From: a phage
Sequence record: PZ166175.1
DNA: 44,735 nucleotides
Strand: one strand, 5' to 3'
Every line of letters begins with the position of its first letter. The stretch's first letter is position 1. The translations under genes were made by a program, and so were the position numbers. The notes beneath the pieces are model-generated. The model was not told the origin of the DNA. It saw nothing but the letters and a program-made list of their open reading frames with translations, and ran no database searches. This document shows positions 2,381 to 40,376 of this stretch, one piece after another.

Positions 2381-2458
2381 TGGCGCTCCGCACTGGATTC
2401 GAACCAGTAACCTACGACTTAGAAGGTCGTTGCTGCTATCCGATTGAGCTAGCGGAGC
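2381..2458 (-). tRNA. tRNA-Arg (anticodon UCU), with encoded CCA
   Basis: hand-folded cloverleaf: 7-bp acceptor stem GCTCCGC/GCGGAGC, anticodon stem ACGAC/GTCGT with loop CTTCTAA, T-arm ACTGG-TTCGAAT-CCAGT, discriminator G, CCA. Confidence 0.85.
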
Positions 2459-21235: not shown

Positions 21236-21266
21236 ACAAAAAAGGCCCCGAAAGGGGCCTTATCTT
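21236..21266. terminator. bidirectional rho-independent terminator between tail fiber and SSB
   Basis: AGGCCCC-gaaa-GGGGCCT hairpin flanked by A-run and T-rich tract. Confidence 0.6.
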
Positions 21267-21679
21267 TAGAACGGTATATCGTCTTCGAATTGTTTTTGTT
21301 GTTGTGGATTTTGCTGTTGTTGCTGTTGCTGTTGCTGTGTCTGCTGCTGCCCCGCAGTGTCACCACGCTGACTGAATTCAAGTCTCGGGTTGTTCATGTT
21401 GATTGTTACATAAGTCTTACCATCTTTATCTCGAACATCTACAGCCAGGCTTTCAGCGCTAACGCTAACAACCTTACCCTCTTGAAATGCCTCGTTGTAC
21501 CAATCTAACATTGACTCTTTCGCGAAAAAGACGGCGCGATAGTTACTATACTGAGTCTGACCATCTTTATCCTTGTATCGCTCACTCAAATCAACCGCAA
21601 ACATTTTCCAGCTACCATTTGCGTTCTGACCTTCTTTGGTGAATGGGGCGCGGCGAATCTGACCAGTAATTACGTGCAT
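21266..21679 (-). CDS. ssb: single-stranded DNA-binding protein with polyQ linker
   Basis: acidic C-terminal tail FEDDIPF; Gln-rich linker QQQTQQQQQQQQQNPQQQ; sits next to ERF-like gene. Confidence 0.65.
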   Translation of the reverse strand: MHVITGQIRRAPFTKEGQNANGSWKMFAVDLSERYKDKDGQTQYSNYRAVFFAKESMLDWYNEAFQEGKVVSVSAESLAVDVRDKDGKTYVTINMNNPRLEFSQRGDTAGQQQTQQQQQQQQQNPQQQKQFEDDIPF

Positions 21680-21699
21680 ATTTTATCTCTCTGTTGCTT

Positions 21700-21718
21700 G
21701 GGGCCTAAGCCCCGTTAA
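21700..21718 (-). repeat. conserved 19-nt hairpin element GGGGCCTAAGCCCCGTTAA, copy 1
   Basis: identical 19-mer at 31966..31984; both sit between a stop codon and the next RBS. Confidence 0.7.
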
Positions 21719-21720
21719 AT

Positions 21721-22371
21721 TTAAAATGTGTCGATTTGTTGTGATTCTACTTCAATCCTTTCTTCAGGATTACTTTTTTCTGCGACTTTCTTTGGTGTTG
21801 CTGGGTTGAAGCCAGTTGCTGCGTTTGCTTCGATTTCTGCCTTTCGCGCGATAATGTGTGGTTCAAAAACCTTCCATCCTGCCGCATCGAGAGATTGCTT
21901 TGCCTCCTTCCATACGTTACGAAGCTCATCAAGAGTGTTGCACTTCTCAAGTTCTCGTTTGAAGTCTTTAACACCTTTGGCTGCAAGATTGCCATCGTCA
22001 TCTGCCTGGCTAAGCCCTAATGCTGCCGTGATGCCGTAACGTCTTGCGTATGTTAAAGCCGAGCCGTAACCTTGTGCATCATTCTTGCTGATTGGGACAA
22101 TCATTAAGAAGCTAACCCATTCTCCAGATTCTGCATGAAACAGCTTTGTCTCAACCTTCATGCGGTTTGTTTGATCATCATCCAGGACGCTCTGGAACAT
22201 AACCAAACCGCACTCATCAAGTCCTGGCTCAACGGCCGCCAATACGTCTTCTAGGGTGGCGTATTTGTTCTTGAGGTGCGAGTTCTGCTTTGACTTTTCA
22301 GCCTTCGCAAATAGCGATTTAGCAGTGTGCAGCGCGTTTAAAATTGATTTGCATGACTCTGAAATTTGCAT
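21721..22371 (-). CDS. ERF-family single-strand annealing protein (putative)
   Basis: motif GSALTYARRYG; flanked by SSB and exonuclease genes. Confidence 0.55.
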   Translation of the reverse strand: MQISESCKSILNALHTAKSLFAKAEKSKQNSHLKNKYATLEDVLAAVEPGLDECGLVMFQSVLDDDQTNRMKVETKLFHAESGEWVSFLMIVPISKNDAQGYGSALTYARRYGITAALGLSQADDDGNLAAKGVKDFKRELEKCNTLDELRNVWKEAKQSLDAAGWKVFEPHIIARKAEIEANAATGFNPATPKKVAEKSNPEERIEVESQQIDTF

Positions 22372-30383: not shown

Positions 30384-30743
30384 TTATTCAAAATAAACCT
30401 CGAAATCTATAAATACTGAAACACCCTTTGATTTAAGCTCCTCAACCTCTATCAAACTATCATCAAAGAATTTCTTAGTAACATCAATCCCATTCATTCG
30501 ATACTTCATCTTGCCATCGTGAGCATCCTTGCGAGGAGTCACTCCCTCTACTCGTGAGAAGTCGTAACAATCATCACAAGTCATGCTGTTAAATTTTACA
30601 ATATTGCCATTCTCATCTTGAGTCTGATAGTGCCTGTTTGAGTCAACAACATTGCAGGTGTAAATGCAGCCAGCAAAAAACAAACCAGCGCACTTTTCTT
30701 TTTCTTTTTTGTATCCGTTAAATTTAATGTAGAACATTTTCAT
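30384..30743 (-). CDS. hypothetical Cys-rich protein, inserted gene inside the tail operon
   Basis: ORF track; own early-type promoter cassette upstream; multiple Cys pairs. Confidence 0.5.
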   Translation of the reverse strand: MKMFYIKFNGYKKEKEKCAGLFFAGCIYTCNVVDSNRHYQTQDENGNIVKFNSMTCDDCYDFSRVEGVTPRKDAHDGKMKYRMNGIDVTKKFFDDSLIEVEELKSKGVSVFIDFEVYFE

Positions 30744-31603: not shown

Positions 31604-31954
31604 TTAACGCATTGAGCTAAAAACTTCTACGAATTGCATGCTCACAGTCTGAACTTCCTTGCTGAGCGGAGTGACGCTAATGCTATCCTGCTGAATCACG
31701 AACATGGATGTATCACCCTGCGGAGTTGTCCAGAAGAATGGAGTAATGATGTGGTTGAAGCAAAAAACCATCACATCTCTCCAGTCCTTGTTAGTGTATG
31801 TCATCTGGTAGCTTCTAGTGTTACTACGATATCCACCCGTACCCCTTTGGGTGTAACCATTGCCGAAGCTAACAATTCGCACGTTGTTCGTATTACTGAA
31901 TGAAGCTGAGCCACCCTGTATTTGAGTACACCAGTTGAAAGTATCAATAGCCAT
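31604..31954 (-). CDS. minor tail protein (lambda gpM-like)
   Basis: 116-aa ORF directly downstream of tape measure gene. Confidence 0.55.
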   Translation of the reverse strand: MAIDTFNWCTQIQGGSASFSNTNNVRIVSFGNGYTQRGTGGYRSNTRSYQMTYTNKDWRDVMVFCFNHIITPFFWTTPQGDTSMFVIQQDSISVTPLSKEVQTVSMQFVEVFSSMR

Positions 31955-31965
31955 AAAAATCCTTA

Positions 31966-31984
31966 GGGGCCTAAGCCCCGTTAA
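31966..31984 (-). repeat. conserved 19-nt hairpin element GGGGCCTAAGCCCCGTTAA, copy 2
   Basis: identical to 21700..21718; between tape measure stop and gpM-like RBS. Confidence 0.7.
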
Positions 31985-34963
31985 TTAGTTAAATCCGCGA
32001 AGGTACTGATAAGCTTTCCCACCCTGCTGGAAGGACTGAGCAATCTCTTCCGCTACGATGGCCTTGACGCCATTCTGCAATGCCTTGGCTTGCTCTGGGT
32101 CGCTACCGACACCTGAGTTTACGTTAACAGTGATGCCGCTAACATTAACATCCGAACCAACAGAAACCAAGCCGCCATTTGCATAACCAGATGGACCACC
32201 TACAGCGCCGCCGTTTGCATACCCCTTCATTAGCGCGTAAAGGTTTTTCACACCGATTCGGCTTGTAGCTTCTTTTGTGAATACAAACTCACCACGGTGC
32301 ACAGTGCCTGCTGGCTGGTACTTACCGCCGTCACCAGTGTAACCGCCACCGGCGAAACCTATAGCAGACGCAAAAGAGCCAAACGCATTACCTCCACCAC
32401 CACCAAAGCTAGTCAATGTTGACTCGATGGCCTTAACCAAAAGTAACTGAGTTGCAATCTTCGCAATCATTTTGAGGATGCTTGCTGTGAACTCCCTAAA
32501 ATTGGTCTCACCAGTGGTTACAAGGTTTGTAATTTGCTCTGTAATCCCTTCGAATGCCGCAACTGTCAAGTCCTTAGCAATCTTGTTGTAGTCTGTATAT
32601 TTATCAGTCAAGTCTGCAAGCGTTGATGTTACGCCAGCTTGCCAATCAGACCTAAGATTATCTTCCTGCTTGTAGTATTCCTTTCTTGCATCTAGTAACT
32701 GCTGAAAATCAACATCATCGACAGAACCACCAGCATTAACCTGATTGGATTGAAGTGCCTGAATTTCCTTAGCTCTTTGCTGCTCGCGAGATGATAATCC
32801 AGCCCCCAAATTAATATTGCTTGCTTCATTGTTAATCTGAATAATCTTCTTGCGGTTATCTTCAGCTAGCTTATTGGCTCTCTCCTGCAAAACAATCTGA
32901 TCACCTAGCTCAGCCTTCTGCCTGGATAACTCAAGAACCTTATCCTTTTCAATGAGAAGTCTTGCTTGCTCTTTTTTTATTGAGCCATCACGCTGTCTTT
33001 GCTCAAGAATCTGGAATTTTGCAACCTCCTGAAGATACTGCTTGCGCTCATTGCTTATTACTGAGCCAATATCCCTGTTTTCCTGAAGCACCTTGAGTTG
33101 TGCCTGTAGTGCAAGCACGCCAGATTCGTAACCAATTGTAAGGTCTCTTTGCTCTTTAACCCTACCATTTTCTTCTTTCCTGTTCTTCTTGATCGCATCA
33201 AGTTCATCCTGAAGCGCTTTCTTCCTTTTTGAAAACTCCTCATCCGTGCCTGACTGCTCATTGGTATTCTGATTTTCTCTGCGAGTAACGTAACCAAGTT
33301 CTCCTTCTCTGATTCTGGCATCGCGCTCCTTGATGGACTTCTCTAGCTCAAGGTTTTGCTTCTTAGCGGCATCGATAATCTTCTGCTGTCCCTTTATAAC
33401 ATCATCACCAACACCATCAAGGCCGGGGATGTTCTGCAATGCCTGTGTTGCGCTAATTACGAATTCACCAATCAGCACATCACCCTGGTTAATGAAGACC
33501 CTGATTTGCTCAATTGTTCCGGCAATTACGTCAACAAACAGGTTCAGCGCCCCAACCGTTCTACGACTAATTGCATCCCAGATATCAGAGATGTACTTCT
33601 TAAAGTCATTCCATGCCAATTCAAGTGGTGTCAATTGAGCTGCTATGTCGTTAAGGTTGGCTTCCTGCGACTTGCTGAAAATATCAATCGCGGCGGTAAC
33701 AGCCTCAACCTCTCCCTTTGTCTTTCTCAGGTTTTCGATTGTCGTCAACTGCCCCTGCGTGAGGAAGTTAAAGCGCTTATCCAAATCAACTAAACCCTGG
33801 ATTGGGTCGCTTGCAATCTGGTTATAGTAACCAGTAATCTCCTTCGCATCCTTACCTGTCAACTGCGCCCATCTGGCGGTTGATTTGGTAATCTTGTCAA
33901 TCTGCGTCAGCGTAAGGTTCCCTTGCTCAATAAGGCTTGTTGCGATGCTAGTCACAAGTCCTCTGGTGGCACCAGTAGCATCAGAAACAGAGCTAACCAA
34001 CTCTCTAACCTGCGAGATTGATGCGATTGTGGAGTTGTTTGAGAACACAATGGCAGAATTTAATGCTCTGAATTCACTCTCTGCCTGAGCGGCACCGATA
34101 CCGAGAGCAACAAGTGCCCCACCCAAAACGCCAACAGCAACATTGAATGGATTTAAGGCTTCGAGCGCGAATCTAAAGGTGTTACCAATACCTCCAAATG
34201 CATCCTTAATTTGTCCGCCTTGCTGAATTGCAATAAGCCAAATCGGAATGCCGCCAGCAAGTGATGTCCCAATATCTGTAATCTGCGCTGGCAATTGAGA
34301 GATTGCAGCCTTGTATTGACCCGCGCTTAAGCCAGAGCGTCGAAAGGCCTTGCTCTGAGCAATTAGCTGGGTGTTTGCCTTCTGTGATGCATCGGCGATT
34401 CTGTCAATAATAGGCGCTGCCTGAGAACTTACGCCAAGCTGAGCAGCCTGTAATTTTAAGTACTCCTCACGCGTCAATGTTGCCGCTTGAGCCTGTCGCT
34501 CAAGTGACTCAATGAACCTGTCAGCTTCAGCCTTCGCTTTTGCCTTATCCTTTGCGGCTTGAGCTGCTGCCCTACCCTCCTCAGTTAGCGCCGCACGTGA
34601 GCGAGCAAGCTTTGCGTTCTGCGTTTCAAGCGCCTCACCTAATCGGAAAAACTCCTCATCAGGAACCACGCCAGCCGCGAAAGCCTTATCCAGACCTACA
34701 GCAGCCTCCTGGAGTTTACGGAACTTTGCCGCAGTTGGATCAATAGCAGTTTGCAATTTAGCTAAAGATGCTTGTTGCTCAGCAAGTGCGCGAGCGGTAT
34801 CTCTAGCCTGGTTTTTAGCAACCTGCTCAGCGTTGACGAACTCACTAATACCGGAAGCGGCTTGCTGGTTTGCCTGCCTGAACTTCTGTAGTGATTGAGT
34901 GCCCCTGTCTACTTGCGCGACGTCTACGGCTAGTGTTATTCCGGCTAATTCATTTGTTGCCAT
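31985..34963 (-). CDS. tail tape measure protein
   Basis: 992-aa ORF, Ala/Gln-rich coiled-coil composition; downstream of G/T-like chaperone pair. Confidence 0.8.
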   Translation of the reverse strand: MATNELAGITLAVDVAQVDRGTQSLQKFRQANQQAASGISEFVNAEQVAKNQARDTARALAEQQASLAKLQTAIDPTAAKFRKLQEAAVGLDKAFAAGVVPDEEFFRLGEALETQNAKLARSRAALTEEGRAAAQAAKDKAKAKAEADRFIESLERQAQAATLTREEYLKLQAAQLGVSSQAAPIIDRIADASQKANTQLIAQSKAFRRSGLSAGQYKAAISQLPAQITDIGTSLAGGIPIWLIAIQQGGQIKDAFGGIGNTFRFALEALNPFNVAVGVLGGALVALGIGAAQAESEFRALNSAIVFSNNSTIASISQVRELVSSVSDATGATRGLVTSIATSLIEQGNLTLTQIDKITKSTARWAQLTGKDAKEITGYYNQIASDPIQGLVDLDKRFNFLTQGQLTTIENLRKTKGEVEAVTAAIDIFSKSQEANLNDIAAQLTPLELAWNDFKKYISDIWDAISRRTVGALNLFVDVIAGTIEQIRVFINQGDVLIGEFVISATQALQNIPGLDGVGDDVIKGQQKIIDAAKKQNLELEKSIKERDARIREGELGYVTRRENQNTNEQSGTDEEFSKRKKALQDELDAIKKNRKEENGRVKEQRDLTIGYESGVLALQAQLKVLQENRDIGSVISNERKQYLQEVAKFQILEQRQRDGSIKKEQARLLIEKDKVLELSRQKAELGDQIVLQERANKLAEDNRKKIIQINNEASNINLGAGLSSREQQRAKEIQALQSNQVNAGGSVDDVDFQQLLDARKEYYKQEDNLRSDWQAGVTSTLADLTDKYTDYNKIAKDLTVAAFEGITEQITNLVTTGETNFREFTASILKMIAKIATQLLLVKAIESTLTSFGGGGGNAFGSFASAIGFAGGGYTGDGGKYQPAGTVHRGEFVFTKEATSRIGVKNLYALMKGYANGGAVGGPSGYANGGLVSVGSDVNVSGITVNVNSGVGSDPEQAKALQNGVKAIVAEEIAQSFQQGGKAYQYLRGFN

Positions 34964-34976
34964 CTAAGCCTCCATA

Positions 34977-35008
34977 ATAGAAAACCCGCCGAAGCGGGTT
35001 ATTTTTTT
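34977..35008. terminator. bidirectional terminator-like hairpin upstream of tape measure gene
   Basis: AACCCGC-cgaa-GCGGGTT with T-runs on both sides. Confidence 0.5.
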
Positions 35009-36001: not shown

Positions 36002-36024
36002 TAAAAAACCCTCCGAAGAGGGTT
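36002..36024 (-). terminator. rho-independent terminator downstream of major tail protein gene
   Basis: AACCCTC-cgaa-GAGGGTT followed by TTTTTTAT in minus sense. Confidence 0.6.
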
Positions 36025-36030
36025 TGTGCT

Positions 36031-38308: not shown

Positions 38309-38334
38309 TAAAGGACGCCGAAGCGCCCTGTTTG

Positions 38335-38644: not shown

Positions 38645-38668
38645 AAAAAAAAGCCCTCCGAAGAGGGC
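38645..38668 (-). terminator. rho-independent terminator downstream of major capsid protein gene
   Basis: GCCCTC-cgaa-GAGGGC followed by T8 in minus sense. Confidence 0.65.
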
Positions 38669-40336: not shown

Positions 40337-40359
40337 CAAAAAAACCTCCCGAAGGAGGC
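40337..40359 (-). terminator. rho-independent terminator downstream of the 169-aa head gene
   Basis: CCTCC-cgaa-GGAGG followed by T7 in minus sense. Confidence 0.6.
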
Positions 40360-40376
40360 TTTATATATCTTAATTA

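Follow-up and report, generated by a model that had tools for sequence, protein, structure and literature searches.

The window, by which we mean the whole 44,735-nucleotide stretch of phage DNA analysed (PZ166175.1), carries the same short G:C hairpin just past the stop codons of two genes, those for ERF and for the tape measure protein. It is an ordinary phage gene-end hairpin in a new place, known from the TJ element of phage phiX174. From its sequence, fold, transcript-sense position, conservation, missing U-tract and identity with TJ, we infer an exonuclease-barrier function combined with low termination efficiency at both copies. The explanation that we prefer, namely that the hairpin is a barrier to 3′ exonucleases which stabilises the upstream RNA and terminates transcription weakly at most, has in our judgement about an even chance of being correct.

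The repeat GGGGCCTAAGCCCCGTTAA lies on the + strand at 21700-21718 and 31966-31984. An exact-match search finds precisely these two copies, the number does not rise when up to three mismatches are allowed, and 100 dinucleotide-preserving shuffles of the window give an expectation of 0.01 matches. All four flanking genes are encoded on the minus strand, and in transcript sense either copy reads UUAAC-GGGGC-UUAG-GCCCC. At site 1 the transcript runs from the ERF stop to the SSB start as TAA-AU-UUAAC-GGGGC-UUAG-GCCCC-AAGCAACAGAGAGAUAAAAU-AUG, and at site 2 from the tape-measure stop to the gpM start as TAA-UUAAC-GGGGC-UUAG-GCCCC-UAAGGAUUUUU-AUG. The preliminary description had placed the copies at the ERF/SSB and tape measure/gpM-like junctions, each between a stop codon and the next ribosome-binding site; Pfam matches for three of the genes and orthology for SSB confirm the junctions, and the order of elements can be read directly from the sequence. 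Copy 1 is located 7 nt 3′ of the ERF stop and 20 nt 5′ of the SSB AUG, whereas copy 2 is located 5 nt 3′ of the tape-measure stop and directly adjoins the gpM Shine-Dalgarno sequence. Both consist of a 5-bp stem and a 4-nt loop with a predicted energy of about -10 kcal/mol (-9.8 to -10.1), and both are kept in the centroid structure of their 101-nt contexts, so the fold proposed earlier holds at either site. Among relatives the 5′ flank is UUAAC or UAAAC, the Shine-Dalgarno-like stretch of SSB is kept as AGAGAGAUAAAA and the UAAGGA of gpM is invariant. Coordinates are collected in Table 1.

Table 1. Positions of the hairpin copies, their surroundings and the features compared with them (window coordinates unless a locus is named)
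Feature	Position	Strand	Remarks
Hairpin copy 1	21700..21713	-	GGGGC-UUAG-GCCCC, 5-bp G:C stem, 4-nt loop
5′ flank UUAAC of copy 1	21714..21718	-	common to both copies
ERF stop codon UAA	21721..21723	-	followed by in-frame AUU UAA, a tandem stop
SSB Shine-Dalgarno-like AGAGAGA	21686..21692	-	purine-rich, read from sequence; AUG at 21677-21679
Hairpin copy 2	31966..31979	-	GGGGC-UUAG-GCCCC
5′ flank UUAAC of copy 2	31980..31984	-	
Tape measure protein stop codon UAA	31985..31987	-	
gpM-like Shine-Dalgarno UAAGGA	31960..31965	-	AUG at 31952-31954 after UUUUU spacer
ERF	21721..22371	-	Pfam PF04404
SSB	21266..21679	-	no Pfam match; orthologue of genes annotated SSB in Rtp and other relatives
Tape measure protein	31985..34963	-	Pfam PF06791, PF09718
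Phage minor tail protein, gpM type	31604..31954	-	Pfam PF05939
12 canonical terminators	~1917, 11441, 21242, 25538, 28990, 31583, 34983, 36006, 38312, 38653, 40341, 44005		
CUUCGG terminators	34983-35000, 36006-36025, 38312-38329, 38653-38668, 40341-40362	all -	
HNH-insertion loci	L003 379-879; L004 403-897; L005 379-891; L133; L138		L003, ECH1; L004, C119; L005, IME542
Cross-family junction	window 31952-31987; L162 1500-1540; L163 1200-1240		L162, EnC15; L163, WA13

The window belongs to a T1-like siphovirus (Drexlerviridae, Braunvirinae) with 85-93% identity to Rtp, Guelphvirus and Veterinaerplatzvirus phages. Elsewhere in it we observe a tRNA-Arg(tct) gene at 2381-2458 (-), as in MM01 and other T1-like phages. 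Beside this gene, at 2470-2572, stand two tRNA-arm-like hairpin pairs, CCCGGTTATGATTCCGGG/GGTCGCCTTTACGACC and CCCGGTTACGGCTCCGGG/GGCTGCCTGATACAGCC, which ARAGORN and Rfam do not recognise and which may be tRNA remnants. At 193-1360, about 1.17 kb are free of ORFs of 40 aa or more on the local coding strand; this stretch may represent the genome end or the pac region of a permuted assembly.

Both junctions were taken from fetched relatives, which gave a comparative set of about 30 genomes (related-locus searches with gpK and gpL returned only 8 and 5 loci). The preliminary description had named uniqueness to this genome as the outcome that would count against it; the hairpin is found at both junctions across the relatives checked, namely Rtp, MM01, T145P1, Msk, EC3a, 12210I/12397V, A110b, metagenomic contigs and Rogunavirinae, with the site-1 stem damaged in some. 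In Nouzillyvirus it is present at the ERF-SSB junction only. Rtp, MM01, T145P1 and Msk each contain exactly two copies, at the same two junctions as the window, and a REP- or MITE-like dispersed repeat was rejected on this count. Damage to the site-1 stem is confined to three lineages, the 12397V type, EC3a and A110b, and in A110b and 12397V the only intact copy is at site 2. The site-2 junction of Braunvirinae is a nearly invariant 36-nt sequence, TAATTAAC-GGGGC-loop-GCCCC-TAAGGATTTTT-ATG, found in Rtp, MM01, T145P1, Msk, 12397V/12210I, EC3a, A110b and several metagenomic contigs; its loop is UUCG throughout, except for UUAG in A110b and the window. The Rogunavirinae Rogue1, Opt-79, e4/1c and Sf12 have TAATAAAT-GGGGCTTCGGCCCC-TAAGG at this site, and TR2 has GTGGC-TTCG-GCCAC (GUGGC...GCCAC in RNA), that is, a compensated pair in which G:C is replaced by U:A.

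Site-1 loops are more diverse. UUCG is present in MM01, Msk, A110b, C119, Jk06, Rogue1, Opt-719, XT34 and ESCO41, UGCG in Rtp, T145P1 and IME253, and UUAG in the window and one metagenomic contig; EC3a has UACG, DTL CUCG, IME542 UUAU and Sd1 UUCU. On the transcript strand, the loops of relatives are thus mostly of the UNCG type (UUCG, UGCG, UACG), to which the UUAG loops at both window sites do not conform. Judged by this distribution, the ancestral element was a UNCG tetraloop hairpin, of which the window copies are variants. The exact 19-nt identity in the window arises because, in an old, family-wide pair of hairpins, both loops show the same C-to-A variant. The earlier statement that an identical element sits at two unrelated junctions is therefore true but describes nothing peculiar to the window, as the pair is family-wide and only the UUAG in both loops sets the window apart. 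The exact 19-mer has 0 matches in IMG/VR, so the UUAG form with the given flank is rare; a search with the degenerate pattern AACGGGGCNNNNGCCCCAA returned mainly unrelated contigs.

Nine distinct Braunvirinae site-2 junctions were aligned. None of the 10 stem positions varies and one loop position does, whereas over the last 27 coding nucleotides of the same alignment 7 of 9 third-codon positions are variable (Fisher's exact test of stem against third-codon positions, p ~7e-4). By this comparison, the hairpin is under purifying selection. In a covariation count, 96.8% of cells were paired and a single pair was compensated; as 65 of 500 shuffles do as well, this control is not significant, because the stem is almost invariant. 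Distant genera provide stronger evidence for selection on structure than covariation within the family. At their ERF-SSB junctions the position is the same, the stems are unrelated and the loops are of classic extra-stable classes: GGGCGGC-UUAG-GUCGCCC in T1, GGCGG-GAAA-CCGCC in Webervirus Sin4, GGGGCG-CUUG-CGCCCC in Hanrivervirus egaa and GGGGCG-CUAGC-CGCCCC in Henuseptimavirus BubbaBully. No hairpin is seen at the tape measure-gp37 junction of T1 or before SSB in a Vibrio relative.

These data also bear on the idea that the element has no present function and persists by descent as what is left, decayed or neutral, of an earlier terminator. The broken site-1 stem of three lineages and the loss of the UNCG loop at both window sites are what such decay would leave behind. 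However, site-2 stems are invariant next to synonymous sites saturated with changes, a version without U-tract is conserved across subfamilies, and different-sequence hairpins occupy the same position in distant genera, which makes a functionless remnant very unlikely.

The closest counterpart of the window elements is found in phiX174, which is unrelated to the window's dsDNA siphovirus. Its J-F region, verified by BLAST, reads TAA-TTGCA-GGGGCTTCGGCCCC-TTACTTGAGGATAAATT-ATG, and thus shows the layout of the window junctions: stop, 5 nt, hairpin, Shine-Dalgarno sequence and AUG of the next gene. The TJ hairpin, GGGGCUUCGGCCCC, agrees in 14/14 nt with the relatives and in 13/14 nt with the window; GGGGC-UUCG-GCCCC is the form of the relatives, while the window has the UUAG loop. 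As a Rho-independent terminator TJ is leaky: at 37 °C read-through amounts to 68% (PMC3335065), and just 20-40% of transcription is stopped (bioRxiv 10.1101/2020.03.05.979765). Transcripts ending at TJ are more stable, and disruption of the structure leads to faster decay (PMC3335065); these effects are known for phiX174 only. Four of the 8 nt after the TJ stem are U (UUACUUGA), compared with 0/8 and 3/8 in the window, so termination should be weaker in the window than at TJ.

Hairpins of this kind are widespread. CUUCGG hairpins are described as common in phage intergenic regions in the work of Tuerk (1988), as cited in PMC8948821 and PMC4371310. Like the window elements, the C(UUCG)G hairpins of phage T4 are intergenic and have a short, perfectly complementary, C:G-closed stem on the transcript strand, but the UUCG loop is matched only in the window's relatives, and the functions of the T4 hairpins are varied. 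In IMG/VR, TAATTAAN-GGGGCTTCGGCCCC occurs in 99 stretches, which by eye represent about 40 distinct contexts with a GC content of 34-57%; every copy lies where an ORF ends, with either a T-run or a Shine-Dalgarno sequence plus ATG behind it. Sampling the bare hairpin in 122 distinct viral contexts, we found TAA within 12 nt upstream in 83 and a U-tract in 54. By these surveys, the hairpin is one of the commonest phage gene-end modules, with or without a U-tract. As a side observation, the palindromic double stop TAATTA, which provides a stop on both strands, occurs within 12 nt upstream of GGGGCTTCGGCCCC in about 12% of the 122 contexts by eye, a frequency estimated to be far above chance (IMG/VR loci L263-L382).

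BLAST with the 36-nt consensus junction retrieved near-identical sequences from unrelated phages. In the T4-like Karamvirus EnC15, the junction between the genes for the distal long tail fibre subunit and the receptor-recognising protein (gp37-gp38) reads TAATTAAAGGGGCTTCGGCCCCTAAGGATTTTTATTATG and matches in 34/35 nt (E 4e-8); the J-F junction of Alphatrevirus WA13 reads TAATTAACGGGGCTTCGGCCCCTATAAGGATTCTTAAATG, where the flanks match as well (TAATTAAC-hairpin-TATAAGGATT). The shared junction of about 36 nt comprises TAA, TTAA(C/A), GGGGCTTCGGCCCC, T(A)TAAGGATT.. and ATG. It is conceivable that such a stop-hairpin-Shine-Dalgarno unit moves as a block: within a genome it might pass from one junction to the other by gene conversion or concerted evolution, and it might also cross between coliphage families that are not related. 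We regard this as distinctly unlikely. In its favour, the rare UUAG is found in both window loops, the 5′ flanks of the two sites change together (in most Braunvirinae either site has TTAAC, in Rogunavirinae the two sites have TAAAC/TAAAT), and TAATTAA(C/A)-GGGGCTTCGGCCCC-TAAGGATTTTT is near-identical in T1-like phages, the Karamvirus and Alphatrevirus microviruses. The identity across families and the matching rare loops may have come about by convergence, by gene conversion or by the transfer of a small cassette.

With regard to termination, the window copies were compared with other hairpins of the same genome. In twelve junction hairpins of the window, U makes up 5 or more of the first 8 nt past the stem. 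The two window copies resemble canonical Rho-independent terminators of T1-like phages in being GC-rich stem-loops right after a stop codon, and five of the terminators in the window use a CUUCGG-type loop, but the focal copies are devoid of the U-tract that defines terminators. They offer five G:C/C:G pairs just downstream of a gene; of the 8 nt that follow the stem, none is U at site 1 and 3 are U at site 2, in agreement with the earlier remark that a strong U-tract is missing, and their stems are the shortest of the junction hairpins compared. A terminator consensus scan of the window called neither focal copy on the coding strand. A terminator acting on the + strand was rejected, as the flag was weak and appeared at site 1 only, not at site 2, and + transcription is not expected within these operons. 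The five CUUCGG loops are in transcript sense and belong to the structural operon, many of whose junctions carry a hairpin when these and the other terminators are taken together.

The gap between hairpin and start codon leaves no promoter space before SSB or gpM, and expression of both must therefore come from read-through. Since the U-tract is missing, in contrast to the 12 window terminators, a role in RNA stability is favoured over efficient termination. To this extent the view of the preliminary description, which preferred such a role to that of a terminator, stands; an outright 'not a terminator' cannot be asserted, because the UUCG form of the same 14-nt hairpin is phiX174 TJ, a terminator as well as a stabiliser. 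Both copies might thus be leaky intrinsic terminators or attenuators at which, as at TJ, some polymerases stop and downstream transcription is stepped down, a possibility that we consider rather unlikely. For termination by E. coli RNA polymerase a U-tract must follow the hairpin directly, and the values of 0/8 and 3/8 contrast with 4/8 in TJ and at least 5/8 in the window terminators; the dependence of SSB and gpM on read-through likewise argues against such a step-down. What recommends it, besides the partial block by the phiX174 hairpin, is that UUUUU begins 7 nt past the stem at site 2, that real terminators stand at neighbouring window junctions, and that the MM01 GenBank record labels the ERF-SSB copy 'terminator' on the basis of an ARNold prediction (the other records annotate neither element). 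In addition, T1-like late regions have been described as terminator-flanked modules (PMC11447400).

The protection of RNA by 3′ hairpins inside operons is established for E. coli (PMC5927463), and the window hairpins have the corresponding features: they are stable, conserved and placed at a cistron boundary across which read-through is needed. In the malE-malF and puf decay terminators (PMC5927463), too, a stable, conserved intercistronic stem-loop without U-tract is combined with a need for read-through; with 14 nt, however, the window hairpin is far smaller than REP elements.

On the basis of these likenesses, we propose that a short, very stable stem-loop would form in the polycistronic mRNA just past the upstream stop, that of ERF or tape measure. 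It would belong to the cUUCGg tetraloop class of intercistronic hairpins, of which phiX174 TJ is the best-studied case. Because no U-tract follows the hairpin, host RNA polymerase would mostly read through into SSB or gpM. Endonucleolytic cleavage downstream, or occasional termination, could then leave the hairpin at the 3′ end of the upstream RNA, where it would block the 3′-to-5′ exonucleases PNPase and RNase II; the upstream message would live longer, and the expression ratio across the junction would be set in this way. Several points weigh against the barrier explanation. The extra tetraloop stability is lost in the window, because the loops are UUAG and not UNCG; the element is dispensable at site 1 in the three lineages in which the stem is broken; and there is no obvious need for ERF and tape-measure mRNA to be stabler than that of SSB and gpM. 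A literature search on the transcriptomes of T1-like phages yielded nothing usable.

The position of the hairpin relative to the ribosome points to a further alternative, a translational role, in which the structure either insulates the downstream ribosome-binding site or couples the two genes when the ribosome terminating upstream melts it. The hairpin begins 5-7 nt past the stop, which places it where the mRNA enters a terminating ribosome. Copy 2 directly adjoins UAAGGA, a layout that recurs in unrelated phage contigs, and the minimum-free-energy fold at site 2 lengthens the stem into a weak helix that takes in the Shine-Dalgarno sequence; this extended helix is, however, missing from the centroid structure. 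According to the partition function, the predicted Shine-Dalgarno accessibility at site 1 is 0.83 with the hairpin versus 0.61-0.65, but at site 2 it is 0.39 with the hairpin and 0.40-0.56 when the hairpin is removed or scrambled, so that the two sites disagree. Moreover, the spacing between hairpin and AUG differs (20 nt at site 1, 11 nt at site 2), and in C119 and IME542 the gene behind the hairpin is an inserted HNH gene and not SSB. Taken together, a translational role is unlikely.

Further RNA classes were considered. An RNase III site of the T7 type, with a stem of about 20 bp, was discarded, as the stem here has 5 bp and gains no stable extension in the 101-nt folds. Rfam covariance models gave no match at either site at E up to 1. 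The site-2 hairpin is spaced like an element that stimulates read-through or frameshifting, and the 30-nt Braunvirinae spacer between tape measure and gpM (31955-31987) is in frame and free of stops, so that read-through would fuse the two proteins. Stop-codon read-through was nevertheless rejected: Rogunavirinae carry the tandem stop TAATAA and a spacer of 31 nt, which is out of frame; at site 1 a second stop follows in frame; and of the stop codons UAA is the tightest. The in-frame spacer of Braunvirinae, which is not kept in Rogunavirinae, is probably incidental.

Both junctions have also been targets of insertion. Free-standing HNH endonuclease genes in relatives are inserted at exactly the ERF-SSB and tape measure-gpM junctions, at site 2 in ECH1, IME253 and IME542 and at site 1 in C119 and IME542. 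At the ERF-SSB junction of C119 and IME542 the hairpin remains upstream of the HNH gene. In ECH1, IME253 and IME542 the cassette replaces the site-2 hairpin with AAGCCAAA-AGGA-UUUGGCUU, which follows the tape-measure stop and has no U-tract; the hairpin brought by the site-2 cassette is also written AAGCCAAA-AGGA-TTTGGCTT. The HNH cassette as carrier of the hairpin was rejected, as the site-1 hairpin stays upstream and the site-2 cassettes bring a different one. The ECH1 cassette has GGATT(C/T)AAC at both ends. In the window, a 119-aa ORF without Pfam match occupies 30384-30743 (-) between the gpL-like and gpK-like genes, and Rtp has the HNH endonuclease rtp40 at this position.

The insertions at both junctions would fit a DNA-level role, in which the repeat would link modules during their exchange by recombination or mark the place for homing-endonuclease cassettes. 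The junction is indeed more conserved than the flanking coding DNA, and the phage encodes RecE-like and Erf recombination proteins. Distant genera, however, keep the hairpin and not its sequence, one relative has a compensated pair, the preference for UNCG loops is strand- and RNA-specific, and HNH genes in the family occur at other junctions too. We therefore attach hardly any probability to a function in DNA.

Our analysis gives two intergenic elements that Braunvirinae and Rogunavirinae have in common an annotation that is concrete and can be tested, and ties these conserved T1-like junction elements to the experimentally characterised TJ of phiX174. It also calls for caution: an exact short repeat in a phage genome need not be a genome-specific regulatory signal, and the one in the window reflects the reuse of one of the commonest hairpins at phage gene ends. 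For phage engineering, the HNH genes of relatives indicate that both junctions tolerate cassettes. In the phage itself, the hairpin likely tunes the expression ratio across each junction.
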